64,000 nt of DNA from Ascidiella aspersa. Lineage: Eukaryota. The position numbers and the translations under genes were made by a program. Where the stretch lies: NCBI GenBank assembly GCA_963924565.1, contig OZ004615.1, forward strand, positions 21,514,001 through 21,578,000. The letters run 5' to 3'. The notes beneath the pieces were generated by a model, which had not been told where the DNA came from, searched no databases, and saw only the letters and a program-made list of their open reading frames with translations. This document shows, piece after piece, positions 6,893-57,150 of this stretch (its first letter is position 1; each line of letters begins with the position of its first letter).

Positions 6893-7288
6893 CTCTATCC
6901 TAGGCTGTTTGTGTCATTTGTATTGGTTTACAACCAGGTCAACTTGATTCCGAAACTGAAAATGAATGAAGCCAAATGGACCAAACAGTTTTTGTAAAAT
7001 TCTCGATGTTTTCTACATAATATTAGATTTACAAACTCTAAACTTATGGACTCCTAACGACAAACAATTGGCAGCAATCCGCAAAACCGTTTCAATTAAA
7101 AGCGCAACTTGATTCCAAAATTGAAAACGAATGGAACCAAATGGACCTAACAGTTATAGTAGAATTTTAGCTCCCTCGATGCTTTTGTTCATAAATTGGC
7201 ACTTCAAAACCTAAACACATAAACGTAAAGATTCACATAAGGTGTGATCAGTTTAAAACCGATTTAATTGAAAGTGCCATTTGTCCAG

Positions 7289-7497
7289 ACATCCCACCAA
7301 GTCACGTGATAAGCAGCACCTTGCCGCGTCGTCCCGTCACGCACGTGACCTCCGGCATCAGCCAATCAAAATCGAGCTCGTTGGCGCCGGACGACAGCAA
7401 GTTGAGCGAAAAGGAACGAAACGATATCGACGAGCTTCTGAGATCGGTGCAGGAACTCGACTTCACAGTTTCAAAGCAACGTCCCAAACCTAAAATC
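7289..7497 (+). CDS. TNS: Tensin exon D
   Basis: Acceptor catttgtccag, donor ATC|gtaagt; phase 1-0; LSEKERNDIDELLRSV resembles recalled TNS1 LSPQEKRELDRLLSGF. Confidence 0.88.
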
Positions 7498-33852: not shown

Positions 33853-35153
33853 AGCGACCCGCCCCAAACCCTCCCATCGATGGCTACGTCAACAATGACG
33901 TCAGCATCCGCTGACCCTTCCTCGCCGCGCTACCCTCACTTCCACGAGACCTCACCCGGCTTCTCTGTACCCGACTCGCGCACAGCTCAGCGCGCCAACG
34001 TCTTCACCCCAGCCTACGCGCATCCAATGCATCAGCCACAACAGATGGGCCGCTACGAGCAGCAGCTACACGAACAAAAGCTACAGCAACAACAACAACA
34101 GCAACAACAACAACACGACCAGGAGGTGCGCCGCTACGAACAGCAGCTGTACGAGCAGAGACAGCAACAGCAGAGGCAACAGGATCAGCTACATAAGCAA
34201 CAGAGACAGGAGTACGAGCAGGAGGTTATGCGGAGGCGGAGACATGGCCAGGAGGACCCGCAGAGGACGCGCTATGAGGAGGAGCTGGAGCAGGAGAGAC
34301 TGGACCAGCAGAAGTTGCAGCAGCAACAGCAGCGTCGGCACCGCGAGATACAGCAACAGCGAGACCAGGAACGCCTGCGATACGAGCAGGAGAAGATACA
34401 GCAACAGCAGCTGAATCTACAACAACAAAATTTACTGCAACAGCAGAATTCACATCAGCAGCAACAAGTGTTCAACTACGATCAACCAGTGCGACAGGAA
34501 AGGCTACAGCAACAAAGCCAACAGGCTCGAAATGTGCAACAGCAAAATCTACAACAGCAGCAAAATCTACAACAGCAGCAAAATCTACAACAGCAGCAAA
34601 ATCTACAGCAGCAGCGAAATCTACAGCAACCAAATCTACAGCAGCAAAATCTACAGCAGCAAAATCTACAGCAACAAAATCTACAGCAACCAAATCTACA
34701 GCAGCAAAATCTACAGCAGCAAAATCTACAGCAACAAAATCTACAGCAGCAAAATATACAGCAGCAAAATCTACAGCAACAAAATCTACAGCAGCAAAAT
34801 CTACAACTACAGAAACACGCTTTGGACGCGTTCAACTACGAGCAACAACTCCAGGAAGATTTGCTCCAAACGCAGCGAGAGGAGCGCCAGAGAGAGATCC
34901 AGCGTCGGAGGCGCGAAGAAGACTTGGACATCCTCCGGAGGCAGGAAGAACAGGAGAGGCTGCTCCTGAAGAGGAGGGAGTCGCAGTTCGATGAGCAGGA
35001 GAAGCAGCGGCAGAAGGAGAGAGAGCGCCAGGACAAGTTCCAGGAGGAGTTTGAGAACAAACAGAAGCTCCTCCGCGCCAACATGGATCCTCCGCGCGAT
35101 CCCGGACCCGCCCCTCTCGCATCACAGCTCCAGGAGCAAAAGAAGCGTCTGTC
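33853..35153 (+). CDS. TNS: Tensin exon E (1301 nt, Q/E/R-rich, with QQQNL repeats)
   Basis: Acceptor ttctttgtttccgcag, donor TC|gtaagt; phase 0-2; ORF 33823..35157. Confidence 0.88.
34537..34803 (+). repeat. Coding minisatellite (15/18-bp units) encoding about 17 Q(3-4)NL repeats
   Basis: ctacagcagcaaaat units; 34621-34680 and 34681-34740 are identical 60-mers. Confidence 0.97.
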
Positions 35154-36361: not shown

Positions 36362-36606
36362 GCGTTCGAGCATTTCATCGCCGCCTGCAACCGCCACGTC
36401 ACCAGAACTGGCGTCACCGGTGACGTTGCGTGCCGACGCAGCATTTGCGTCACCGCCGCCCGTTGCGTCGCTTCCGGGCCGGGGTCAACCAGAGTTCAAG
36501 ACGCAGCCGGATTTGGCTCCGGATCTGCAGAGTCAACTGGACGACTTGGACCGATACATTGCACAGCTGACCAGCAGTGTTGCTGACCTGCCCGAAGTCC
36601 CCGCCG
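36362..36606 (+). CDS. TNS: Tensin exon F
   Basis: Acceptor caattttccag, donor GCCG|gtaatt; phase 2-1; DLQSQLDDLDRYIAQL resembles the tensin LD-like helix. Confidence 0.87.
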
Positions 36607-38009: not shown

Positions 38010-38354
38010 CAGGGGTTCTTAAACTTTTTTTACCGCGGACCCCTAAAATTTTCTTTTATCTCGCGTGGACCACTGTAGGCAAAACCAAAAAAAATTAAAA
38101 AATGACGTTATAAATTGACGTCACAGTACAAATAGACTTCATAAATTTGCTGATTTTGGTCCAAAATTGTGAAAGTGAAATAGAGTCTAAATACATTCAG
38201 TGCAAAATCGTTTTATTTTTAATTAAATTGATTTCTTTAATAAATTGATTACTTCTTAAATAAACACTAATATTTCAATTAGACCTTCATGGACCCCCTA
38301 AAACTAGTTCACGGACCCCCAAGGGGTCCATGGACCCCTGTTTAAGAACCCCTG
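38010..38354 (-). mobile_element. hAT MITE, inverted copy of 36799-37095, nested in an older fold-back MITE (~37912-38408)
   Basis: TIR caggggttcttaaac / gtttaagaacccctg; perfect TSD ctatatac. Confidence 0.92.
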
Positions 38355-39657: not shown

Positions 39658-39788
39658 TCCAATCAGCAACGCTCTCGCCCCACCACGCCCACCATCCCGC
39701 ACCAGGAGTAGCTTCGAGTCCGTCTCCCGACGTTTATCTCACGGTTTTGAGCTCGCTCAAGCATTAAGACAGAACTCGGCCGAAAGAG
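39658..39788 (+). CDS. TNS: Tensin exon H
   Basis: Acceptor gtcttaacgcag, donor AGAG|gtaagg; phase 2-1; PPRPPSRTRSSFESVSRRL resembles recalled TNS1 PPAPVRGGSSREAVQRGL. Confidence 0.85.
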
Positions 39789-39831
39789 GTAAGGACTGTC
39801 TTGTTTTTAAGTGAAGAATAGACTTTCCACT

Positions 39832-40232
39832 TATCTCTGAAAAACATTCTAGTGAGATCTATCCACAAAATATAAAAAATGTGTCCCTTAACCTGACTAA
39901 ATTTTCACTCATGTCAAAAACTGTGAAAACAGCATCGTAAGAGTCTTTTTAAACTTGCAATCGTGTCCTTCTATCTCTGCAAAACATTCTACGGCAATCT
40001 ATGTGAAAAAAATCAATTTTTTACCCCTAAATCCAAATATATTTTTAATCATGCCGAAAGCTATGCAAACAGCACCGTTAGAGTGTTTTCGAATTTGCCA
40101 TGGATCCCCGTATCTCTGCAAAACATTCTAAGGCGATCTATAAAAAAAATTAAAAATGTTTGCCTATAAACCCAAATTTATTTTCTCTAATGCCAAAAGC
40201 TGTAAAAACAGCATTGTAAGAATGTTTTTAAT
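39832..40232. repeat. Tandem repeat, ~140-bp unit x3
   Basis: tatctctg.aaaacattcta..aaacagca..gt.aga at 39832, 39972 and 40111. Confidence 0.88.
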
Positions 40233-40942
40233 TTGCTACTGTAAATTGTTTTCTTTAATCGATAATACCAACCAAATTTCTGCATACCTTTATGCTGTTT
40301 TATCTTGTGTGCTTTTGACGTGTGGTTGTTTTTTGCGTTACGAGTGTATGTCAGATTACGATGTTGTGTGCGCTACGGACCCTGAATGTATCGGTTGATG
40401 TTACAACAGAACAGTCGAGAACATCACTTGAAATGTGTCGTTGACACGCCATTTGCAAACACTGGCGCATAATTCAGTTGTCGGGCCTATACTTAAGGCC
40501 CTTAAACTAAGTGTACTCGTGTGCTGTTTAACGCAGTCGATATGTATACACTGTCTATAAATATATATTTTTTAATAATATAAAATTCAGCTATGTTCAG
40601 TTTTAACGTAGGCTGTTGTCGCTGCGTTCTTTGCCATTGGTCATTGTGCTACTTTTAAACTAGAGCCTTATCGATAGTTATGACGTAAAATAAAGTAATT
40701 TTTTGACATCTGGAATCTTTATACCCTTAGTTTCGGTTGAACCGGTTGGTCGTACGTTAAATCCACATGCGTGAATCTAGCAAATGGATAAAAAGATTAC
40801 GAAATGGCGAAGTTAGTTTTTTTGAACAGCTTGCTACTTTTGCTGTTTAACCTTGAAAAATGTTGAGTGCAATGATTTATATGCTTACCAATAACGCGCC
40901 GAACAGCCGTACCGATTTCCCTTGTTTTAAGAGATCCCAAGT

Positions 40943-41363
40943 CAGTGTTGTACTGACTTAGGTCAATGACTTGACTTGAGTGCACTCAAGTCACTTGACT
41001 TAAGTCTTTTCGACAAATTACTTGGGTAGAAATGCAGTGTTTTCATTAAGCATTATTTTTGTAAAATGGGGTATTTTATCTCAATTTGTGCATGTTAAAC
41101 GATAAGCTTGTGTACGTTGCATTTTGTGTTATTTTTTAGTTGACTTATTGCTTATAATTATGGATTATATTCGAAGAAGTTTACCAATTTTAATGGTTTA
41201 ACGTTTAATTGTAACGACAAGGACTTAACTTGGAATTGACATGCTCATATTATGACTTGACTTAGACTTTTGTTATTTATTCAAAAATACTTCACTTAGA
41301 CTTAAGTTCTTCTACAAACGACTTAAATTGAAGTCATTCCAAAATGACTTGTTTACAACACTG
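40943..41363 (+). mobile_element. gacttg-repeat MITE, copy 2
   Basis: Same TIRs; TSD tcccaagt / ccccaagt. Confidence 0.85.
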
Positions 41364-42703
41364 CCCCAAGTACGCTCGTTCGCGCAAACTTTACGTCACG
41401 AGAAAACACATTCCGGCAAAGCCTCATTGCCCTTGTTCACCCAATCTAATTCGGCCACACCCCAAAACCCATTTACGTCGAAGCCCATTAGGCGGTCAAC
41501 TTGGCATTGGCGCTTGTTTATTACGACTTTATGCGTTTCTACCCTTCAAATTGAACTCTAGTCTACTAGGTAAGGAATAAAGTTTAATCGACTAAAAACA
41601 ATTCTCAAGTTGACGTCAAAGCCGAACCCTTTTGCCTGTTGTTTTGCCGAACAGTGGAGATAGTGTTTGGGCTGTTTGTTTGGGCTGGGAGGTAGGTAGG
41701 TCTCAGTGAGTTGAAAGCTGGTATAGGGTGAGCAAAGTGCTGTTTGAACTTTTGAACGTTTCCTGTTTAGAGAGGGAGAGAGTTATAAGCCCTGGAAGGC
41801 GCCCAGGTGCAGCGTGATCGCAAGGCTGTTTTCGTTACGCTAAATTACGGTAATGATTTCAAGGGAGCTGTATAAACAAGACGAACGAGCTGTTGTTTTG
41901 TGTGCTTTTAAACCAATTCTAACCTTAGGTCGACTATTTCCGTGTTGTTTTCTTGTCATATTTAGTAATTTCTAGGTCAAACTGGACTAACAAAACGTTA
42001 GCGTTCAGAAAAAGTTTGTAAAAGTTATTTGTCGAAAAGCGAGATAATAGGTGGTTGTTAAAAATTGTTTTTACATATAGCTCCTAGAGTTGTTCGATAT
42101 TATAACGCTCCTGCGTCGATTCTATTCTAGGACTAAACTCAAAAACGCAAAGGGTAAATTTCAACATTGATAATTTTGCAAGCAGGATTCAGATTACGTA
42201 ATTTCCGAACAGGCAGTATGAACAAAACGGAGTAACGTCGTAATCACCTGGTCTCCCTATAGTTGTCGAATTTCGCGCCGTTTTTGGAGCGCACGGCGTG
42301 CAATGCGAGACGGCGAACATATCCAATCAATGGCGGCCCGATTTGTTGTGAAAACTAAAGGGGCGCTTTCGGCCCTAGTGATTTTCGAAAGTGGCCCGCA
42401 ACTCCATTATAAATTTCAAAGGTGCTATGGCCCTGCTTTGCGCTTTGATGGGCGCTCGCTCCGTTTTCGGTGCTTTGTAACACGACACGCCTGGCATGAC
42501 GCGAACACGCAAACGCAATGAGGGTTAATTAGGTTTTCTGTTCTTCCATAAGCGAAAACTGCGATTGGCGAAGCCCGGGATAAAGGCTATTCACATCAGT
42601 ACACTTTAGGAGCTAGAAGGTTTGCATTTTAAAGTGTTTAAACTTTAAACAAGTCTAAATTAATTTAAAAAAATTGGTACATACTAAATCGTAGCGTCCA
42701 GAC

Positions 42704-42921
42704 CAGGGATGTTAAACTGGGGTCCGTTGACCCCCTTAGGGGTACCTGGTCTAATTTTAGTGGATCCATGAATGTCTTATTAAATTCTTAGTGGTCAATT
42801 TTAAAAGTGAAACAAATTTTGTAAAAGAAAGGAGTTCAATTGAGCCAAAAAGTTTGGCACCTTCTTCTTGTAATTAGACTTCATTGCAGGGGGTCCTCGT
42901 TAAAAAAAATAATAACCACTG
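42704..42921 (+). mobile_element. hAT MITE (related family, degenerate)
   Basis: cagggatgttaaactggggtcc..aataaccactg; TSD gtccagac / gtctagac. Confidence 0.78.
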
Positions 42922-43364
42922 GTCTAGACCATTTTTAATATGTAAACCATATGCGATATTATCCTTCCAAGTTTATATTTCCATCACGCTTTCTATTAGA
43001 TGGCAACATCAAATTAGTCAAAAATAACAAACCGAATATCTTAATACCGTTGGCTGGGCATTTGTTATTCCATATCAAGGGTACAAGTGCTACAGCTCGT
43101 GAAACCGGATCCAAAGTCGAGATGCACACGCAATAGGGCGGCTTGTGGTGTACAAATCCAAGTACCCAGGCTAGTTCAGAAAATACCGCGTAAGTGGGAC
43201 GTTATACTACAGGCGGGAAACGAACACAAGGGAAGTTCATACGACCGGAAGTTTCTAAAACCTTCTCAAAATCGATACAATAGGGTAAAATACCCGTTCC
43301 GGAGAACCAGTGGTAACTTGATCTGGTGTCAAACAATAAGGTTTTTTTTTTGCCAAAAACGAAA

Positions 43365-43793
43365 AAGTTTGTAAATAAGTATTTTTGAAATGACGTCCCT
43401 GTCAACGTCATTTGTATAAAACCTAAGTCGAAGTTAAGAATTTTTCATAAATAACAGGTCCCAGTCCAAGCCATCAGTTGCCCAAGTCAAGTACTAGTCC
43501 ATGTCATAATTAGAGCAAGACCCAAAAAAGACGAGAAAAAACCTTATACTTAAAAAAAAATTGATCGTCCGAATAATTATGAGCAATACCTCACCTATAA
43601 AATAACTAAACTATAGCATGGAAATTGTTTTATGTGAAAAAATTAAGATAAAAACAAAAAATTGCTTAATGAAAACACATTATTTTAACGCAACTCTTTT
43701 ATCTAAAAGACTTAAGTCAAGTCAAGTATTTTGTCCAAAATTCATAAGTCAAGTCATTTTGAAGCAGTGACTTGAGTGCACATCACAACACTG
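43365..43793 (-). mobile_element. gacttg-repeat MITE, inverted degenerate copy
   Basis: caagtc units; ends cacaacactg; further fragment at ~52290-52385. Confidence 0.7.
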
Positions 43794-44684
43794 TCGAACC
43801 ATCTTTAACCCTAAAACTGAGGTGAAGTAATAGGAAAACACACTTATCGTTGGGGAGTGTGTCTGCAAGAGATAAATGAGGCGCTTTACTAAAGGAGCGT
43901 CGAGTTCTCGTATAAAGCTTACGGCCTTGACGTCTCACCACGTGTTAGTTGATCAATCGCCCGTTGAGCAAGATTTTATTGACTCACGTCGTGTAGCTTT
44001 TGTCAACGATCAATCAGCGTTTTGTCGGCATCTCGGTTTTCGGTTATTGCTCTTATCTGCGCGTTTTATTGCTCAGGTATGCATTGCTAAACAAAGGCCA
44101 GTTTAAGTGTTTGTTTTAAAACCGCCGGTTTCCTTGCTGTTACCCTATACATGAAAGTCCATTTAGCTTTATTTTTTCCTTTTTTTTTAAGTGGCGCTAA
44201 TTAAATTTAGCGGATGGTTATTCAAGCGGCTAAAACCGTTTCCCTTTAATGCACAGAGGGGTGCAGGGAAATAATAATTGGCCTGATGCGTTTCATATAA
44301 AGTTTATAAACTGTCCAGTGTCCATGTCCATGTAGTCTAAATTACGCATTTTTTTAACGAATTTTAACTAAGGCGGAACTAGATGCATTTTAAATAAAAG
44401 CAACATATTTCGGTAAAAGCCCGGCCACATACATGACCTGAGCGAGCTGTGCGCGCCGAGAATTTTCTAGAACAATATTTCCGAAAGTTGCGGTGATTTT
44501 TTTATACAAACCTTGTTTTGCCTTTAGCTATCCAGCAAACACAGTTTTACCTAAAAATCATATTGAAAAATATAAATATGAATATTTATATTCAGCGATA
44601 TTTACCCTTTACTGTCACAACTTTCGGAGAAATTGCTCTATAAAAATTTTGGCGCCTTAATTTCGCTCAGCTACATACATACAG

Positions 44685-44899
44685 GGGACCTGCTGGCGCT
44701 TCCATTCGAACCAGCCTCGTATATCTCGCTTCACATAGAAGGCGCCGTAACGCTCAACGTAGCAACAACAATATCGACGCGAGCGCATTACGCCGCTGTG
44801 TGGCCTTGCATGAACTCGGCTCGGTCGCTAACCTTTGGCCTCACCGAGACCCGAGACAACAGCATCGGGATTACTGCCGAACCGTTGTGACTGCAGAAG
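44685..44899 (+). CDS. Candidate alternative internal exon with GC donor
   Basis: 71 open codons, locally GC-rich, phase 2-1 like exon H; donor AAG|gcgagt. Confidence 0.35.
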
Positions 44900-47646
44900 G
44901 CGAGTTTTTCGCCGCTTTCGCACGTATTTTGTATTGGCGAGGATATGTTAGGTTGGCTATATGCGTATAGGCGATCGCGGCGCTTGGAAAGCTGGTACGG
45001 CTGTTGTTGTTTTGTTTGGCTTGCGCAGGTTAAGTTGAGAACCTTATCCATTCGCGTAAACGGTCGTTTATTTGCGAATTGCTCTTTTGCAGACAGAATT
45101 TTTGCTGGACCCTTAACCGCATGGGAATACGAAGGTTTTGAAGGAATATTTTTTACGTAAATATATTAGCGTGGCAGCGAACCGGCTTTAATACATAGCT
45201 GTGTTGAGGAGATAAGTCTAGAATCCAGCAACCTATAGTCAAATATAGTTTTCGAGTTGTTATTTTATGGACAGATGTTTTTTTTACTGAAAGGCATCGC
45301 GAAAGGTCAAATTTCGAAACAGACCCTTCAGTGGTTAATTGACAAGTTTCTATACGTGTCTGCAGCCTGGAATCATAAATTCAACTTTTTAAACAGGAGA
45401 TACGCTAAAAATGACAAGTTACAAAACACGCTCTAGGTCTAGGCAAACTTGTCGAATCTGCGCGGTCTGCTAGTGTAGCAACCGCCGAATGTTTTGGGGC
45501 GAGTTAGGAACAACTCGTAAGCCACTCGACCGAGCTACTCAGACTAACACAACACCGCGCCACCGTACAAGTGCAATCGGCAATGCTCGAGTTTTGACTG
45601 ATGCAAGATTTCACGCGGGTCATGTGCTGACAAAGGCAATGTGGCTATACCAAAAAAATGATGGTGCCTAAATAAAGAAGTTGTTGGTATTTTATCTAAA
45701 TGAAGCAAGGATCATTTGACGTGTTTAAGGCTGTTTTGTCAGCGATTTGGTTGTACATGAAACTCGTTTTAAGTATTTAACGACGTTTACAGGTTGTAAA
45801 AGATGATTTTAACTTAGAACCACACGGCAGTCGAGTGTAGAGTAAGATCTAGAAAACTAAACCACACGCATGCCGTATAGGGAAAGCGATTCAGAGACAT
45901 TGTTTATCATAGTATGTTTTATAGAAATAGCCAACCGCCAACATGCCAGATTCAAAGTATAAACGAGAATATTGCATTGGTGTTTGCCATGCAACCCTGA
46001 ACTTCACATTTTAAGGAGGCATTCGTCAGACAACAATGCTTATGCCATGGTCATATAGTGTCATATTTATATGGTGCCATAGCGTGCAGTCGCGCGGCTC
46101 CATTAAGTCAGTGAAATTGTCGCCAATCCGTAAATTGTTTCTCGCTCAATAGAAACCCGTATTTTGCGTGACCTTGGCCCGAGAATTACGAGCGAAACGA
46201 CCTTGGGTTCAAACGTTGTGTCGCTTCGAAGACAATAGAATAAAGAAGTTTAGATTGCGACTCCAATATTCCCCTTTTCATTGGAGCCTATAGTAATTGT
46301 AGTTTTGGGATGAAGCTCTTAGCGATTTTTGATTAAATTACGCCGAAGTTTATTCTGATCGAAGTTTATTCCGAAAAACGCAGCGACGGTCAAATTAAAA
46401 AAAGTGAAAAAAACAGAAAACCTTGCATTTGCCTTATATTTTGTTAGTACGGAATTAGGATTTTTTGGCAGTATTGTAAATTTTCGCATTTGCCATAAAG
46501 CAAGATCTGTTGAAAATATTTACCCGTTGTTTTTTTTTTAGCTACAAACTTTGTGTAAGGGTTTTTAATGGAGTTATAACAGTGTCTGCGTAAGCTAAAT
46601 AGAAATATTCGTACTAAAAAAATTAAATTTTTACCCCCTAAAAATCTCAAAAGGGTTAGCACTAGGGATGTACGATAACACCGAAGCCAACACCAGGTGC
46701 CAAGTTGTTATATCACTACTCGTCCGATACTAGGTAGGTATCGGTACCAAACCGATATCAAATCGTTATCGGAATTTTCTACAGTGTTTGCGATCTAATG
46801 CAGTGATTCTACAATGACAATTTTTTTAAAAATAAATAAGAGTTGAAACTACAGATAAATTAACTTCTTGACACTTAAGCAAATTTTGCCCTGATAACCT
46901 GGAAAATGGTTGCCTTTAAGTTTAATGATTTAAATGTCATCTATTTTAGTTGTATGTAGAACGGACATTCTAAGTTAGCACAAGAAAAAAATCCATGTTC
47001 AGCAGTCCTGCTTAAATTAAAGTCTTTTAAAACCGTTTACTGTTATTGGTGTTTGTACTCTTGCAGAAAGTCGAGCACCGCAATTTGTGAACAAAATTAA
47101 TTAACTTGTAATTTGGCAATACATTAAAAATTTGATCAAACGACTGGATGCTACCGGAAACACAGGCTCGATTGATCCCTTGCAAATGTCGCGAAATCTT
47201 TTAACGTATGTGCAGGATACAAATTTACACAACCGCATTTTCCAAACGCAGTCATCTTAAATATGTTACTCGGTCGCGATCGTCCATTAAATCGAATTGA
47301 CAGCGGTACAGCGTAGGAGAAGTGCGTTTTGCAGGCCGATAACAGCACAAGCCAAATACGGGCTGTGGTTAAAACAACATGCGATTTCGTTTTGGCGATG
47401 CGCAGTTTTGTGTATCTGCACGCGGTTGTGTACCCTACTGCACTTTGTCGAAACACAGAAGTCGCCACTGGATTAAGGGGCGATTTGCTTTAAGTCGCTG
47501 CCGGATTCTATTTCGATTTATATTGGTCCACAGTAATGCCCAAACTAGGTGGATTTGTCTTTTTTGTCCTTTGATGTTTTGGCAGTATCAGTCACCCTTC
47601 GGGCAAATTTAAGTCTCAGGATTCTTAATTTCGCGATATTAAAGAA

Positions 47647-47847
47647 TATAGCTTGATAATAAATCTCAAAACTAAAAAAGGTCGATAAAAAAGGCGTTTC
47701 GATACGCACTTGTATCAAAATCAGTAGATGCGACTGTCACCATCTGTTAAATATGATACAAGCGTGTATCCCAAACGCATTTATCAAGATGATGTCAAAT
47801 TACTCGACCTATTTAACTTTGAGATTCAATCAAGCCATATTACAGAT
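47647..47847. mobile_element. Full two-armed copy of the palindromic hammerhead element (both motifs decayed)
   Basis: Left arm ..gcgtttcgatacgcacttgtatcaaaatcagtagatg, centre cgactgtcac, right arm catctgttaaatatgatacaagcgtgtatcccaaacgc..tactcgacct..tcaagc. Confidence 0.65.
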
Positions 47848-48337
47848 TCGTGCATAGCGCACCTAAAGAATATTTATATGGTAAGAAGACAATTAAAAAA
47901 TATTGCGTTTACACTATTTTTGTTATGCTGTAGCGCTCATTTTTTTTAAGGTTAAACATTGCCGTTTTTAAGATTAAACATTACGTGTTAAAACCTAGAT
48001 GTCAGACACAATGTGTTAAACGTACTCTAACTGGTTTACTGCTACTGTAAGGATATTGCGTTTACAAACCGGGTCCAATCTATTTAGAAGGAGCCAGGTC
48101 AGCCAGATCAACAAATTACCAAACGACGCAAGACACTGTTCTTTCGTAGCACCCGATTACCATCGATTGCAGAAGCTAGTTCGCTGGGCTTAAGTTTTTT
48201 TTTCGCCTCGCGGCTTCGTACCCAGTTGACACTTTCACTTCAGCAGTTAAAAGGCGGCATTTTTTTCGACAAACACTTCTAACCGGAAAGATGCTTGTAA
48301 AATTTTAGAGCATAATAATCGGAATTTGTAGTAATAA

Positions 48338-48540
48338 GACGTAGTAAGAATATCAAAGCCCATACAGAAGTAGGGAGCATTTTTAACGAAAAAAGCTTAA
48401 AAGACGCTTAGAAATTACTGAAAACATTTGGTTTAACAGAATCGAATTTTCGCATAAACTAGACAAACTTAGGTAAATCGTCGGTCAAGAACGTTCAAAA
48501 TGCTCCCTACTTCTGTATGGGCTTTGGTATTTCTTACTAT
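48338..48540. mobile_element. Fold-back MITE, same family
   Basis: gtagtaagaatatcaaagcccatacagaagtagggagcattt / aaatgctccctacttctgtatgggctttggtatttcttacta. Confidence 0.85.
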
Positions 48541-49595
48541 TTTTAAAGTTTTGGCGTTTTTTTTTTTTTGAAGATTTTTAACGTTTTCCGACCTAGAGTG
48601 AACTCGACTGGCCCCGGATCTGCCAATAGCTCGTGAAAATACCGACACTACGCTACCGTCGCCGTAATGTCGTGCCGCAAGTTTTAGCTGCCCTGTTGGC
48701 GCAATAGGCCAAACCCTCCCGGCCTGTGCATGCATTAAATCGTATAAATTTGCCACAGTTCGAAGGCATTTTCGCCCAGATACGCACAAAATGGGTGTAG
48801 TTGTGATTTTATTATGCAGTAATCATTTCAGTTTAGTAATTAAAAACAAACAAAAATGTGTTTGACCTTTTTAAACGTGAGTCACGTTTAATTGTTTTTA
48901 GTAAAATTTTACGCAAAAACAATGTTTTTTGTTACTTTCTTATGCGCAAAAGCAACCTTTTTGTTTATTTTACAAAACAAATTGTTTTCTCTAAAAATGG
49001 GCAAATTGGCAGGGTTCTAGACCGATTAAATGTACTCTTGTCAAAACGAAAAATACAGTGATATTTAAAATCCGATCCAAACGTTATTGAGTTATTATGC
49101 CAAACGCAACTGTAAACCTAGTTGCATGACGCTTAAAAAATTACTGAAACGCTACTCTGCGTTAAACACACCAAACATTTAGTTCAACAGAAATCGAATA
49201 ACTTCCCAAAAACTAGACAAAATTAGGTAAATATAAAAAAACCAAACGCTTTGTGTTTTCTGGATAAAAAATGCATTGGGTGAAACGTTGCGTACCATTA
49301 AGGCAGTTTAAGTCTCTATGATTGTTGCCCCAGAGATCGGCCTCAAGATATAGGGATGGCGATATTGACATGGCAAGTACTGGTGGTCGTACCTACGTAT
49401 AGTGTACAGGTTTGATGAATGCCATTCCATAAATACGTAATACGTATAGTTTTGATTGATGCCATTCCTCGAACGGTAGCAAAATCACTCAGATTAGCGG
49501 CGAACCATTATCATGGGGCTTTAGGCAATGCGCGATTTTATCAGCTGATAAAAGTTTAGCTGTCGATTCTTCTATTGTGAGTGCGGCGAACCCTT

Positions 49596-49597
<2 letters not shown>

Positions 49598-49637
<40 letters not shown>
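49598..49637. repeat. (GT)n microsatellite
   Basis: About 20 uninterrupted GT units. Confidence 0.98.
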
Positions 49638-49638
<1 letters not shown>

Positions 49639-50381
49639 TATTCCCGGATGGACTTGGTCAAATATTTGTGTCCGCCCGTCGGCAGACAACGCCAAAGTGC
49701 GCTTCGGGCATTCGATGAGAATAAGCGACTTTTCCCGCTTTTTTCTCTTGGTGTCCATACCTCGACAAACATGTTGTTTTTGCCCGATGAGATGATTCGC
49801 GACGCGCTGTAGATAGATGTGCCTGCAGTTTAGCTTTATCTCACAGGCGACGCGCTTATTTTGTGATCGAATGTCGGCAACCCTAATTACCGAAGTAATA
49901 GGGATGCAATATGTAAATAGAAATTTGCTTTTAATTAAAAAGAAAACAGGTATCAAGCGCCCTTTGCAAGCGTAATATAGTACAAAAAATACAAATTTAT
50001 TTTTAACTACGGAGAAAGCACTTTTGTCCCCACAAAAAGGACCCACCTCATATTTTTGCCCCAGGGTGTCGTTGGCAGCATCGTGTCTGTACGTACGCTA
50101 AGGCAATGTTAAACTATGTATCAATTAAACAAACTGAGGTTGTACCGTGCCACCGAGGTGTCAAAGTTTGTAGGTATCGAAGATAAAGGAAACTTTACGT
50201 TTCAAGATTTTCGCAAACTCTGCCCGCAAGACGAGCCTCCACAAACAAACTGCTATCAACCTGTCCTTGCTTGATAAGATAACGGTCAGGGCGACATTTA
50301 GCTTTAGCGTGCACACTCCAACAGAAAGGATGGAAAGTACATTGTTAAAGTATCAATATGCAATAAATTTATACCCTATAG

Positions 50382-50858
50382 CAGTCGTCGGCAAACTGTG
50401 AGCCGCTGCTCAAATATGGGTCTTTTGTCCGTTTTTTAGCTGTTGTTTTAATATTCCAGTTTTATCGTGTAGCTGTTGTCCGAGTGATAACCGTACATTC
50501 GTTGTACTGTTTTTAAAAGGTTGGTGTGTTTAAGAGATTTATTGTGGCTCATGTTGTATCACATCAGGTCTATTTAACTATGGAAATACAAAATTGTTTC
50601 GCGCTTCGTAAAACACGCAATGTTTCGGGCTACGCGCATTTAGACTGCATTTTAGCGGCATATTTGCGCACGACTTCGCTCGAGAACAGCAGTTGTTTGA
50701 AGATTAATTGTATTATGACGTAACCAAAATATTTTAAGATTTCCAGCCCCAACAAAAATCCTGGATCCGCCCTGCCCGTTGTCGTAGTGGTTTTCACATC
50801 GTAACAGCTCTTGATAAGACCATTTTAGGCCTCAACAAAAAAAGTTTGCCGACCATTG
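50382..50858. mobile_element. hAT MITE
   Basis: cagtcgtcggcaaact / agtttgccgaccattg; TSD ccctatag / ccatatag. Confidence 0.78.
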
Positions 50859-53093
50859 CCATATAGCCTTGGCTGCAGTGCAGTTTAATAACGATAAATA
50901 ATTCTTAATTAAGTCTTTGAGCTGGCAAAGTTTTGACTTCTCAATAGGTTTTAAACCGACATAGACAATATTAAACCCTATAGTCAAACAGAAATAGTTC
51001 GACTTGTAACTCATGGTCATTTTAATAGCTCACCAGTATGAGGGTAGTTACTGATCAACCAGACACGATTCCAAATGTTTGGCGATTGGAACAATGTATC
51101 TGCAGTGAGCTCTCAGGCCAGGCCAGCATTCGAGCACGAAAATGTTTGCGTAATATGTCGGAAAACTTGAAACTAAACGCGTTTGGTCTACTCTATTGTA
51201 GACGATCATTCAGTATTATGTTGATAGTAAAAATGCTACGCTCGAGGTATCAATTGTAAAATTAAGGGATTAGTGGAAGAGGTATACAAAAAAAGTAAAT
51301 ATAATGTCCATCGTACTTTTAGCCAAGTAAAAACAAGTAAAAAAACATTCGCTTTAAAAATTTATTATGTAGTGATTTAGTCTATCGTATTTAAAAAAAA
51401 ATCAGACACCTGCGATAAAAATTACAACTTTACTGCAAAAAGACAATTCGTTGATATTTAAGGTAAAGTGGGACAACCACGGCAAAAATTTAAACACGGG
51501 GTTGCCTATAGTTAGTTTTAGCGGAAACGGAAAATTAACCAAATAATTTCATCAGTTTTCGCGTAAAGTTAAGTTTTATTGCCCTGCGATCGCCACCCTT
51601 TCGCCCGACAGCACTTTCGGCCAGGTTTCAGGCTAACGAGCGGGATACGGGTCCCTGCTGATCCAATTGATTGGCAATTACAAGGGGTGGTGTTCCTGTC
51701 AGTGGCCGCTGAAGGGATGACAGTGATTTTTACACCTTGGTGCCAACTGCTCGACACCCCACTTAGTCTGTGTAATCTGCGCTCGGCCGCGTCAAGTCCT
51801 TTTCACTTCGATTAATGTCAGCTCGTTAGTTTCGGCCTCTATAGAGTGTGTGTATTGGCATTCGAACGTCGGTTGTAATGCAAGCAGACAGGACGGAAAT
51901 TTTAAACGTTATTGAAACAGTTTTAATAAAAAAGGAACGATGTTAGAACTGGTCATTGCATAAGGTTATTGGTACGAGAGGTTAAGGTATGAAACAGGAA
52001 ATGGTTTCCGAGGATAAATTGTATTATTAGGTTAGTACCCTTATTGAAGTTCAGACAGTGGCCATTATATTGATTTTATACTTGGTTGTTGTAGTTTTAG
52101 GCAAACAGATTAAAGGATTTGTGCGCTATACAAGAAGAATTATTTCGATAGTTAGTGTGCAAGAAGAAATATTTCGTTCTTCTTTCATAGAAGAAACCCA
52201 TTTTTACTGAAAAGAATTTAAATAATTGTGATTTTTGAATAGGCGGGATGAAAAATAACTGAATGTAATACCATAATATTTGAAAGTCGTTTGTCCAAAA
52301 AACTTAGTCAGGTCAAGTTATTTTGGTCAAAATACTTGAATCAAGTGTCCTGTGTGCGCTTAAGTCAAGTCAACAAAGTCAATCCACAGTGGATTGTATG
52401 TACAAAATATATGTTATTTCCCGTAAGCTGGTAATGCGGTACGAATGAGAGGCGGAACTATTATCCAAAAAGGTGAACTCTTTACAATTGTAAGGTAACA
52501 GTTCAAAGCTATAGGTGTATCAAGTGACGTGACGGAAGTATCACGTGCATAACATACGCTAAACAGTGCACAAAAATACCTAACAACGTCGTAATACCGT
52601 CGACGCAGACTCAAATTTCCGCTATTAATCAATAAAACCGCAAAAAATAGCCGTGACCTTTTCGTGCGCCGCATTTTTTGGTACGAAAAAGATCCTTAAA
52701 TGTATACATAATTCCCCGCCGTGTATTGAATGAGTCTCTAGATTCGCAAATATTGTGATGGAATAACGCCGGAAAAATCGATCTATTTTCATGCGCTCGA
52801 AAGAACTGACATGCTCCCCGCAAATTTATTGGCGATAATGTTTTTTTTTGGCTGGAAAGGGGGCAAATATAAGGGAAATACGTGGACAACGGGAAAGGTA
52901 TAAAACGCGCTTTTGTCATTCAAACATATAGAAAAGGTTACTGTTTAGCGCACGAATAGCTACGTTCAGTAACCGATTTTTGTTGCGTTTTTAGCAGAGC
53001 CAATGCAATATTTTCAGTTTTATGTGTTAATCTAGTTCTATAGTTTATCAGTTTGCGCCCCAGCTTTTATAAGTCATGCTTTAAACATTCTTA

Positions 53094-53194
53094 GTCACCT
53101 TAACTGAAGATGATACAAGTTCGAATCGAAACGACTTAAGCAAGATGATGTCGATTTACCCGGCCCGTTCGGCTTTGTAATTTATTATCAAGCT
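53094..53194 (+). mobile_element. Right-arm copy of the hammerhead element
   Basis: CTTAA CTGAAGA T GATAC AAGTTC GAATC GAAAC GAC TTAAG (53099-53140), then gatgatgtcgattt..ttatcaagct. Confidence 0.7.
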
Positions 53195-54339
53195 GGTTTA
53201 TCAGGTTTTAGCAATTTTTTTTTAGCCAATATAGTTAAGGTAATGCAACTTTAACTTGCGATTGACAGCGGTAACTAACAACCTTTGAACAGGGCTTTTT
53301 TGTCAGTTAAACATAGGGGTTTCGTCGTGCTGTTGTTCTCCCGACCTTCTCCTAAATGTAATTTCTGACGTGATTCCAATTTTCGACCTTACAGTTTACG
53401 TATAGGTTTTCTCCCGTAGTCCCTAAAACCACTTTTCGCACGCGACACTGTCCGTGTACAATGGAATGTTTTTCACCGTGGCGACAGTATGTTTGTTCCG
53501 AAAGCACATGAAGGGTAAAGCAAAAGCTACAGCCCATGTCCAAAGGATTTGCCCCTTCGTGCCGTCTTAAACGTTCTGATTGTTTGGATTGGCACCGCGA
53601 CATTTAAAGCTATTTCTAAATTCCATTCACTGGTTTTTTCGTAGACGCAATGAAGTTTTATTTCATTTTCCAAGCAATATCTCTATATAATGTATAAAAA
53701 TATCGTTCCTTTCGTTTAGGGTTTGGTCAGATAATGTAGTCCCCAATGGTGTGAAAACAACACAAAATAAACTTAAAAGAACTGTAAAATGGTCATGCAA
53801 GCTTAGGTATCCTAATGGATGGATTTCGATAAATGGACATCTACCATTGTCGGGAATTCGTTGCTGTAATGGCCGAAAGCTCAGCGGCCGGATTTCAACT
53901 ATTTTGAGAACTTTAGAGATAAAAGTCTGGGAATTATTTCTACGTCTTCGATCACTTTGGCGTTGTAGTACGCGACAACCTTAAGCTTGGAATGTGAAAG
54001 GGTTTTTCACTTGAAATTTGAACCTTTCTGGACGCCCGTATAAATGAGAAGAACTTTGTTTAATGTAATATGGTCAATGGACTTGTTTAAATTTATTTAG
54101 GACAGCTTTGTTGACGTAACCAAATTTAATTTATGTTAGCAAAAATCGCATTTAAATCGGCTGTTTATCCAAAATTCGTGTTTGTTATCGTTTACAGTTT
54201 GTACGTTAGTTTGAATACACTATAAGCTTAATTTTTTATGCTTAGTCTTTGGCAGTCGACCTTAGTTTCTAAGAAAAGTGCTAATGTTATTTATGTTTTG
54301 CCCTAATGAGGCTACTTAACGCCAGTTTATCTTAAAGGT

Positions 54340-54357
54340 GTTTGACTTTTCTTGTAG
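54340..54357 (+). promoter_or_regulatory. Orphan splice acceptor upstream of the 54462 ATG (5'UTR cis-splice or SL trans-splice site)
   Basis: gtttgacttttcttgtag, 104 nt before the ATG, with in-frame stops between them. Confidence 0.4.
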
Positions 54358-54461
54358 GCTCATCAATAACCAGAAAACACGAAGTTTGACAGTAGGGTTT
54401 TTAAACGTAAACACGTTCTTATTACGTCATAATCGGACTTGCCTAGTCGTCGCAAATCGCA

Positions 54462-55107
54462 ATGCGCGACGATGAGGTCGACTGTTTCTCGGAGCTTGAA
54501 AGGGTCCTGGCCGAAATGGAGGCCCTGACGCCGGTCCTGAACGCCCGGGCCCGTGCCAGGACGCCCGGTTCCAGTCCGGAGAACGTTTGGGTCAAGAGGG
54601 TCGACGACAACGACAACCACTTGGTTTCGCCCTTCGAGCAATCGCGAATCTTAAACAAGGCGGTCGCGGCGAAAAAAAACAAATCCCTGATGCGAAAAAG
54701 CGCGGCGCCGGCCCCCGGGGTCGCCCCCAAGCTGATCAGGGACCGCCCCAGGACCGGCCAGTTGGGCGAGGCGCCTCTTAAGGCTCGCAAACCCACCGCC
54801 AGGCGGCACACTGTGTCCCTGAACGGCGCTAAAAGCAACTACGTGCGCTTCGACGACCCGGCTGACCAAATGACCGCTCTGAGGAAACTCAACATGGCCG
54901 GCTTTTACGGCTCCCAAGACGCCTCAGTGTCCGGGGCCTATTTTCTTCCGCCGAAAAGCAACGGCTTTCGCGGCGCTTCGGACAGCGTGGCCGTGCTGAA
55001 ACCGCGCGATAACAACAAGCAACGCGGCGCCGTCAAAAGCGACTCCGGCGTTGCTGGCGTCGGCCGACGAATCGCCCGACTTGGTAGGGGCTTTGGTTTG
55101 GGGCTCG
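54462..55107 (+). CDS. TNS: Probable alternative first coding exon of a short tensin isoform
   Basis: GC-rich 221-aa ORF with ATG and an in-frame stop 5 codons upstream; two phase-1 donors (G|gtaggg 55084, G|gtatgc 55108) fit exon I about 400 nt downstream. Confidence 0.72.
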
Positions 55108-55509
55108 GTATGCGGATTTTTGAATGATTGCCGATATGGCAACACTTCTGAGCATCTGGATAATCTCTCTTTCCACTTTAGCGTTAAGTTTAAAAGCAAA
55201 TGTTGCACGTTTCGCATTTGAATGATTTAAATAAAAAACACTGCCTTTAACAGTTTTTGGCGGGCTTTGAACGTGTGTTTGCAAACGGTGGTGTGTGTGA
55301 AGAGGTTTCGGTTCGAAAAAAAAACTTATTTTTTCTGAACCTTGTGTGTTTATTGTGCGGTTGAAATGCCAGTGAACGGGTGACTGACATATTTTGTGTT
55401 TTGGTTTATTGTTTGTTTACGAACGCCTGGGGACATTTTGTAAGACGAATTCCTTTATGTTTTTCCAGATCTGACATATTTTTAACCTTTCCCATCTCTA
55501 ACTTTGCAG

Positions 55510-55564
55510 AGAATCGACTTTCGGTTGGCAAGGAAGATGATGTCTTCACCCCAGGACCACAAGC
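55510..55564 (+). CDS. TNS: Tensin exon I (55 nt)
   Basis: Branch-like tctaac, acceptor tttgcag, donor GC|gtaagt; phase 1-2; NRLSVGKEDDVFTPGPQA. Confidence 0.83.
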
Positions 55565-56115
55565 GTAAGTTGAGATTGCTCATAATTCGTGAAATATTTT
55601 AAAACGCAAGTGATTGTGACCATAACATCTTAGGCGGTATTTGAATAGCAGGTTGTCCGCTATTTTTTAGTAGCAGACCGTTGTGTACAGTAACGAAATA
55701 AAGGGTAGTATCGGTACCGATCCTAAACCAAATTAAAATAAGAATTGTAGCCATAATCTGCAAACTGATACACCGATGTCTACCTTAAAAGAAAAGTTTA
55801 TCAAAATATTCAAGTTAACAATGGAAATAACTCAACTTATTTACGCAAGAGCAACTTCTGGCCTAATAACCTGGAAAAATGACCTTTGAACGTTTCTTTC
55901 GATTTCATCTATTTTGCCAGTTTTTGCATAGTAGTGACGTCATTTTATATCGGATCAGATCGCAATACTTTTGTCCGAAATATCTGATATCGATTTTGGA
56001 TTAAAAAGTCCAGTATCGGACATCTCTAATGTGTACGACATATAGAATATATCGTACCAAAAAAAAAAAAAATCCTTATGCACCCAACATCTAGTAACCC
56101 CCACTTTGTCCACAG

Positions 56116-56320
56116 GGCCCCACTTCCTTCGTACCCCCCTAAGTCGTCCAAGACCCGGCCGGCCCAGCAGCAGATCAGCGCCACGTCCCCGCCCCCCTCG
56201 GCCCAGACCCTGGCCCAGCCCCCCTTAAAAAAGGTCACTAGCCCCAACCCAGTCGAAGATAGACTTTCCCCGGAGCTGTTCCTCGCTATGACGTTGAATC
56301 CGGGCGGGAGGCCAGTCGAG
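56116..56320 (+). CDS. TNS: Tensin exon J
   Basis: Acceptor ctttgtccacag, donor GAG|gtaaga; phase 2-0; LSPELFLAMTLNPGGRPVE matches recalled TNS1 VSPELALTIALNPGGRPKE. Confidence 0.93.
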
Positions 56321-56983
56321 GTAAGAGAATAGCTGAATGTTCCGCTGTTTGTGTTGTTTGGGTGCTTTGGATGTTGACAAAATAGTCGAACTGCCTGAAT
56401 CAGTCGCTAACGATTCAAATGGAAAGTATATTTTATTGGAACTCGGTTTAATTTGACATTTTGTTCAGCTCTGTGGGATGTTTTGGTGTATTAGGTGTTT
56501 ACAAAGTTGCTTGGATCGCCATCAATCAGTCGCTAACGAATTAAATGAAGTATTATTGTTTATAAGTATTATTTATAGGAACTCTTTTTTGTTATTATTT
56601 TTTATGTAGGAGTTTAAGTTGACATTTGCTTTTGCCTGCGAACGCGGGTGACCTTAGTTTCAACTCGATCGCCAGAACAAGACACGCGATAATCCGTCCA
56701 TGAACTAATCCTTTTCTGCGGACAACGTCGCCAACTTTTTATATATGATACTGTTGTTATACTAAACGTGTCTTCCTCTATTTGGTGCTGAGCTACATAG
56801 TTGACGCATGATGTTTTCTATCGGTTTGACTTTTCTTAGAAGGGACAGAAATTACAAAATCTAAATTAACTTTTCAAGTAAAATTGTAAGATTCTGCTGA
56901 CCATTGTAAAAGAGGGAGAAAGTATTTAATGTGCAAAGAATATTTTTGGTAATAATCATTTTATGTCTATTATTTCTTTAAAA

Positions 56984-57150
56984 TACGTAGTAAGAATATT
57001 AAAGCCCATACAGAAGTAGGATCATTTTGAACGTTTTGAATACCGTATCTCTTTATTTATTTGTTTTCAACATTGGTTGAAAATGAATAAAGAGGTATTC
57101 ATAACGTTGGTACGTACTTCTGTATGGGTTTAATATGCTTACATCTTGCT
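56984..57150. mobile_element. Fold-back MITE, same family
   Basis: aatattaaagcccatacagaagta / tacttctgtatgggtttaatat. Confidence 0.8.

Follow-up and report, generated by a model that had tools for sequence, protein, structure and literature searches.

An internal alternative first coding exon, conserved in Ciona, that very probably gives a short tensin in the ascidian Ascidiella aspersa

The window, a stretch of 64,000 nucleotides from the 309-Mb genome of the ascidian Ascidiella aspersa, contains exons from the middle of a tensin gene. The gene as a whole spans ~128 kb in this genome, from about -29.5 kb to +98.2 kb, positions beyond the window being numbered on the same scale (window-extended coordinates: contig position minus 21514000). 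It is placed in the tensin family by a C-terminal SH2 domain followed by a PTB domain, the exons for which lie at +92.7 to +98.2 kb and are 67-95% identical to the tensins of Ciona and Phallusia. None of the other PF08416 matches in the genome aligns to a tensin, and the PTB matches on contig C2, which from their Pfam family we take to be EPS8-like, were rejected as a second tensin on these grounds. At +116400 to +124000 are exons of the gene that adjoins tensin downstream, presumably, from motifs in their translations, a gene for something resembling a voltage-gated potassium channel.

All of the exons that concern us are on the plus strand. Exon H (39658..39788) is the last exon specific to the long isoform and makes a phase-1 join to exon I (55510..55564), the first exon that is common to the long and short isoforms, which has joints on both of its sides, a loose end before 55508 corresponding to the end of exon H. 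Exon J (56116..56320) is also common to both isoforms. Further upstream are two long-isoform exons that encode acidic helices, one at 7267..7490 (end approximate; DIDELLRSVQELD) and one at 36362..36606 (DLQSQLDDLDRYIAQL), the latter helix being conserved and missing from the short form. The long glutamine-rich tensin exon contains a tandem QQQNL-type repeat at 34400-34830, and its counterpart in Phallusia, Ciona and Clavelina is far less extended. Short repeats of high copy number lie at 38010-38354, 41331-41363, 48331-48507, 53083-53160 and 57012-57100; some have inverted ends and look MITE-like, and together the repeats dominate the read depth in the intron between exons H and I.

The gene does not begin at a single place. 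Three ATG-bearing first exons were found besides the one described below, at -29526, -12770 and +80231, and each matches an N-terminus annotated in relatives; that at -29526 matches the N-termini of Phallusia and Ciona X1, that at -12770 the N-terminus of Ciona X4 in the newer RefSeq set, and that at +80231 the N-terminus of Clavelina CAK8674439.1. The gene therefore seems to start, in nested fashion, from four or more ATG-bearing first exons, the internal exon among them. There is also a weak fourth candidate near -34220 (E 0.09).

The 15.7-kb intron between exons H and I (39789-55509) contains, as its longest open reading frame on either strand, a frame of 226 aa from stop to stop at 54447-55127 (+), the runner-up being of 202 aa on the minus strand. 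It has an ATG of its own at 54462 and an in-frame TAG upstream at 54444, just as the earlier note on this DNA had described it from the letters. The coding part of the internal alternative first exon, 54462..55083, consists of 207 codons plus 1 nt and ends at a phase-1 donor, and 54358..54461 is the probable 5' UTR, with no ATG in its 104 nt compared with 9 ATGs in 54000-54357. The exon occurs once in the genome. Its GC3, 0.77, compares with 0.78 and 0.82 for two of the shared exons, where the intron has a GC of 0.40. The encoded peptide is acidic at its start (net charge -6 over residues 1-24) and basic further on (+15 over residues 60-125), so that the basic tract said to follow the N-terminal helix is indeed there.

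It is apparent that this peptide is shared with other ascidians. Searching 2855 longer candidates with it gave a sole match, Ciona intestinalis F6V7W7 (E 8.4e-11), in an alignment that starts at residue 1 of both with 37% identity over 180 columns, and the cluster of F6V7W7 also contains NP_001027625.1/BAC57514.1 (969 aa). A HMMER scan of 1.84 billion proteins found three matches, one to the C. savignyi tensin H2Z9T3 and the others to unnamed ORFs recorded singly, as stand-alone frames of 220-249 aa. The orthologues have E values of 3e-18 to 8e-11 and begin at the same Met-Arg. Both Ciona proteins fuse the exon peptide to the tensin C-terminal half, with the Ciona short form and the long form X2 having 770 identical C-terminal residues and 199 and 1178 private residues, respectively. 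In the alignment of five orthologues there are 33 invariant columns, mostly in aa 1-27, 42-46 and 114-149, and conservation stops before the read-through tail that follows the donor. To judge from these alignments the isoform with the internal exon is orthologous to the reference isoform of Ciona, and the exon and its splice arrangement are already implicit in Ciona records; the conservation in relatives that had been proposed as a check is thus found in both C. intestinalis and C. savignyi.

The long forms tell the other half of this story. A search with the upstream exons, which covered proteins of up to 2000 aa, retrieved the long tensins of Phallusia (1928 aa), Clavelina (1816 aa, with 2015 aa in its cluster) and Ciona, the last as nine RefSeq models of 1784-1952 aa. 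Exon H is in all of these long tensins and the RRHTV block of the internal exon is in none, with Ciona RefSeq X1-X5 and the Phallusia and Clavelina long forms skipping the internal exon. Among the Phallusia, Clavelina and Styela proteins retrieved the internal exon was not found. A search of the literature readable without subscription found no paper that treats isoforms of Ciona tensin or a tunicate loss of PTP/C2.

Evidence that the exon is spliced comes from sequencing runs. Of five runs (X1-X5) the analysis drew on X2-X5, of which X5 alone is recorded as RNA; X3 is without a library record and was treated as RNA-like since its contigs join exons H-I, I-J and J-K. In one X3 contig (depth 28.7) exons H, I and J are spliced together with the exon after J. 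Another, of 426 letters and depth 6.08, covers 54687 to 55082 and from there makes a 426-nt GT..AG jump into exon I, the intron removed in the short isoform being 55084..55509 (+). The junction from 55083 to 55510, one of the checks that the earlier note had set, is therefore present in one X3 contig, and with this contig and the Ciona fusions its main proposal, an internal alternative first coding exon joined to exon I to give an N-terminally shorter tensin, is supported. The short side of the contig is 29 letters, where the bar for bridging is 31 letters, a length that, we infer, two merging paths of an assembly graph would be likely to have in common. The DNA run X2 has zero depth over 54835-55597 and hence provides no DNA control at the joint.

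The X3 depth on the exon is 6.1-6.6 and that of X3 intronic contigs is 3-8, so depth alone is no evidence of expression. Run X5, of which ~6 in 100 reads were sampled, has 8 reads on 53200-56450 with none on the exon, and as it is almost without depth on the shared tensin exons too it says nothing about the internal exon either way. Run X4 was dropped as expression evidence as three of its four listed loose ends are at or beside GATC, which suggests a proximity-ligation DNA library. In the two contigs over the exon 5 of 8 allele differences are listed, 1 in the UTR and 4 in the coding part, and all 4 listed coding differences are synonymous (chance 0.014 for four transitions), this being a partial count with 3 of the 8 unlisted.

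The splice sites around the exon are mixed in quality. Donors with exon ends at 55083 and 55107 are both in phase 1, like exon H, and the frame is open through exons I and J, so that two in-frame routes into exon I exist as had been claimed; 55083 has the spliced contig, whereas for 55107 (site 55105..55113 (+), 2.0 bits) no joint to 55510 is among those listed. The donor at 55083 is weak, scoring -2.3 bits, which is under all 20 reference donors. An acceptor that outscores the one used by exon I lies 41 nt before it, at 55469 (14.2 bits), with no joint listed. At the other end of the exon a candidate acceptor, for SL or cis splicing, is at 54338..54357 (+) with its AG at 54356-54357. With a scoring matrix built from 18 acceptors of this gene it reaches 6.0 bits, rank 25 of 821 AGs in the intron, at the low end of the range of those 18 (5.8-18.1) and not above chance. 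The orphan acceptor of the earlier note is thus there as an AG, yet it is a weak one, and neither a joint into 54358 nor an SL loose end there is among 16 of the 20 loose ends in 53200-56450. The X3 contig over the exon start begins at 54373.

Further upstream, 53104-53960 is a unique stretch of the intron with an X3 contig of depth 7.9 and a few X5 reads whose strand pattern is like that of exon I, and an acceptor within it, at 53645, scores well (rank 3 of 821); the stretch may be outron, UTR or background. The raised depth at 53.1-53.96 kb was set aside as an upstream exon, X3 intronic contigs having depths of 3-8 everywhere and no joint being listed.

Spliced-leader (SL) trans-splicing of the short transcript is plausible. 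The genome has the SL RNA genes that such an mRNA would draw on, with 573 genome matches to the Ciona-type 16-nt SL exon followed by GT (the sequence as in Table 1 of PMC1488885) and 1 match to a control pattern. The SL genes are in tandem arrays of 584-bp spacing with gaps of ~8 kb, at 5.22-5.45 Mb of contig C3 and also on C1 and C2. According to PMC1488885 about half of Ciona genes are trans-spliced. A supplement row of PMC3034685 names a model of the Ciona tensin locus KH.C9.28.v5.A.SL3-1, and as explained in PMC2760879 the SL in a KH model name stands for a trans-splice acceptor defined by full-length ESTs and v5 for exon variant 5.

The exon peptide begins with a predicted acidic amphipathic helix, aa 1-24 (54462..54533 (+)), in which L12, E13, A17, E18, M19 and E20 are invariant in 5/5 sequences. 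Its hydrophobic moment is 0.55, the third best window of the exon, and AlphaFold2, run on the five-row alignment, predicts helices at 8-31 and 139-150 in a disordered chain, at low confidence overall, with a mean pLDDT of 51.5 and a pLDDT of 77 for aa 11-20. After the helix come a short conserved block, VWVKR (54585..54602 (+); V42, W43 and R46 invariant), and the most conserved block, aa 114-149 (54801..54908 (+)), with 18 invariant residues and the elements RRHTV, YV, DPADQ, RK and FY. The consensus of basophilic kinases fits RRHT, which would be a putative site for such a kinase. For the block aa 114-149 there was no Pfam match and no significant PDB match, and the ESM Atlas gave no usable match for the Ciona homologue of the exon; these blanks speak neither for novelty nor for absence.

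Whether the helix is of the LD type that talin recognises is a separate matter. In tensin-3 the site that binds talin forms an amphipathic helix, its core made up of L702 and I706 (PMC12637021, PMC9462884). The best-scoring 15-mer of the exon falls in one register in 5/5 orthologues and has Leu, Ile or Val at the L702 and I706 positions, but with a profile of the vertebrate site from three segments 766 of 2000 shuffles do as well, and for its orthologues, by the same profile, 323, 383, 129 and 30 of 2000 do. The LD-like helix of the earlier note is therefore sound as a predicted and conserved helix, and its likeness to the talin-binding site is not significant. The best ascidian matches are instead two exons specific to the long form, the 7.3 kb exon, the orthologues of which score 19-23, the top ascidian scores, and the 36.5 kb exon (13-17). 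That the N-terminal helix binds talin, or some other adhesion protein built of helical bundles, is a lead with rather less than an even chance. The talin gene of this genome is split into short exons, and at 16938017-16939720 of contig C3 its last two exons are similar and apparently alternative last exons; splice variants of Ciona talin are the subject of a paper (PMC1702346).

The next question is what the long forms have that the short form lacks. The legend of Fig. S1 in PMC9462884 describes tensin4 as without the PTEN-like region, so the earlier note was correct that vertebrate TNS4/Cten has no PTP/C2. In 16 tunicate tensin proteins, 15 of them with SH2 and PTB and one counted as tunicate by inference, Pfam finds neither PTEN_C2 nor DSPc (0/16), and the 16 include the nine Ciona long models, the Phallusia protein of 1928 aa and the Clavelina protein of 2015 aa; as controls, PTEN_C2 was found in 2/2 of a bird and a snail tensin. 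In ~280 kb (283 kb) upstream there is no PTP/C2 exon, the best score of a PTP-C2 profile made from seven tensins being 7.7 bits, against 19.8-45.1 bits for the paralogue exons that it picks up. A genome-wide search for PTP/C2, a lossy one, gave 3 distant matches with none recognised as PTEN, which we take to be TPTE/VSP-like and GAK/auxilin-like. The first shared exon of the long forms is the GPLDGSLY exon at -11133, to which their own first exons splice, and in vertebrate and snail tensins GPLDGSLY lies ~40-55 residues past the WDSY motif of the C2 linker. In the ascidians examined PTP/C2 seems, on these sequences, to have been replaced by short first exons. The long isoform is thus without the N-terminal PTEN-like PTP and C2 of the TNS1-3 type, and long and short forms alike have no PTP/C2 before the disordered region, SH2 and PTB, as in TNS4/Cten. 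As the long forms are without PTP/C2 the whole gene is Cten-like in architecture, and what the internal start removes is disordered sequence, ~1,180 aa of it including the acidic helices, in exchange for a front end of its own.

Taken together, the exon is very probably a conserved internal alternative first coding exon, spliced from 55083 to 55510, likely with its own promoter, that gives a short tensin with SH2 and PTB. That the long isoform is of the TNS1-3 type with PTP/C2, so that the internal exon makes a mimic of Cten by dropping these domains, as the earlier note had it, is very improbable. The short form does have the Cten architecture of disordered region, SH2 and PTB, the genome-wide search was lossy and the protein search stopped at 2000 aa, but PTP/C2 is absent from the 16 proteins with long models included, the first exons of the long forms splice to a motif that elsewhere follows the C2 linker, and the upstream search had working controls. 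Still less credible is an independent nested single-exon gene that ends at the TGA at 55127, or a non-functional frame. An unspliced X3 contig at 55148-55298 (depth 2.4), the weakness of donor 55083 and the two stand-alone homologues would fit with it; the spliced X3 contig and the fusion of the peptide to the tensin C-terminal half in both Ciona proteins do not, nor does the end of conservation ahead of the read-through tail, and the stand-alone frames come from unnamed contigs and are probably what gene calling blind to introns would give.

The form of the 5' end is more finely balanced. By our judgement SL trans-splicing has not quite an even chance of producing the mature 5' end, and a start site of its own close to the ATG is possible, if on the unlikely side. 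It is a little more doubtful that the same protein is made with the exon as a second exon, cis-spliced without SL from a non-coding exon, ending at 51986 or at another donor, to 54358. The donor-like site AAG/GTATGA (51984..51992 (+), cut between 51986 and 51987), to which the earlier note had pointed, is there in the sequence and is the top of the 1035 GTs in the intron, an X3 contig at 51396-51967 has a depth of 6.53, similar to that of the exon, and splicing to 54358 would eliminate the 9 upstream ATGs. However, the top of 1035 sites is expected to score high, other intronic contigs are of equal depth, the acceptor is ordinary and is crossed unspliced by an X3 contig (depth 3.2) with no joint or loose end at 54358 among those listed, and no joint from 51986 is among the 15 joints shown of 483 in a 20-kb stretch swamped by repeats.

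On the preferred reading, that of an internal first coding exon, a promoter in the intron between H and I would yield a pre-mRNA, the 5' end of which is SL trans-spliced or starts near 54370, and the exon would be spliced from the donor at 55083 onto exon I at 55510. The product would be of ~970 aa, with a private front end of 207 aa followed by the half common to both isoforms, which has SH2 and PTB at its end. The SH2-PTB module targets integrin adhesions in vertebrates. The short form would trade ~1,180 disordered residues, with two or three acidic helices, for one acidic helix, a basic tract and the RRHTV...DPADQ block, and the most likely role of this swap of front ends would be a change of partners.

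The mechanism, an internal first exon and a truncated adaptor, is an ordinary one with human precedent, and the interest to specialists is in an apparent lineage-wide loss of PTP/C2, nested first exons and a possible notochord promoter. The named 'tensin homologue' reference of Ciona is on this reading just the short, internal-start isoform of a larger gene, in a lineage apparently without any PTP/C2-bearing tensin, and the exon carries two conserved motifs of no known family. A more far-reaching proposal is that PTP/C2 was lost outright and the N-terminus rebuilt as cassettes chosen by promoters, with this exon being a Brachyury-driven notochord form that gives up the talin-binding helices of the long form and has its own talin-binding helix and a new conserved phospho-regulated motif. 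This is rather improbable as a whole, and if it were true a swap of helices by promoter choice would tune adhesion in notochord morphogenesis. The T-box core motif is TNNCAC, and such cores are not enriched upstream of the exon (5.2-5.9 against 5.1 per kb). Ciona tensin is among 50 Brachyury-target notochord genes (PMC3034685), which makes the question of a notochord promoter directly testable. The cDNA behind that listing is presumably BAC57514.1, and the isoforms would look alike to a probe made from the 3' half that they share.

The nearest of the known systems is that of Ciona. The Ciona protein NP_001027625.1/BAC57514.1/Q86SD5 and C. savignyi H2Z9T3 have the orthologous N-terminus, the same splice-in point and no PTP/C2, and in Ciona RefSeq X1-X5 the long forms start at other first exons, as they do here, whilst the spacer sequences of the exon have diverged between Ciona and A. 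aspersa. Like LD-type motifs and residues 692-718 of tensin-3, where talin binds (PMC9462884, PMC12637021), the predicted helix of the exon is acidic and amphipathic, but it is at the N-terminus of an alternative exon and in this species its score is not above that of shuffles. Human eTNS1 (TNS1-208) as described in PMC11702514 has, like the isoform here, a unique first exon with its own Met in an intron, and it loses the N-terminal half and keeps SH2-PTB; in A. aspersa too the ATG belongs to the exon itself, with an in-frame stop upstream and within an intron of the long form. The promoter of eTNS1 is internal (PMC11702514), that of the ascidian counterpart presumably so. Human exon 1E adds 9 residues, lies within a LINE, is apparently primate-specific and removes PTP/C2 (PMC11702514), whereas the ascidian exon adds 207 conserved residues, is also present in two Ciona species and leaves out no PTP/C2, the long forms having none. 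The contrast drawn in the earlier note, of tunicates using promoter choice where vertebrates use paralogues, does not survive this comparison, as human TNS1 itself makes eTNS1 from the internal exon 1E. With vertebrate TNS4/Cten, no sequence of which is among the matches listed, every ascidian isoform examined shares the architecture of disordered region, SH2 and PTB; TNS4/Cten is a separate paralogous gene and the ascidian short form an isoform of one locus.
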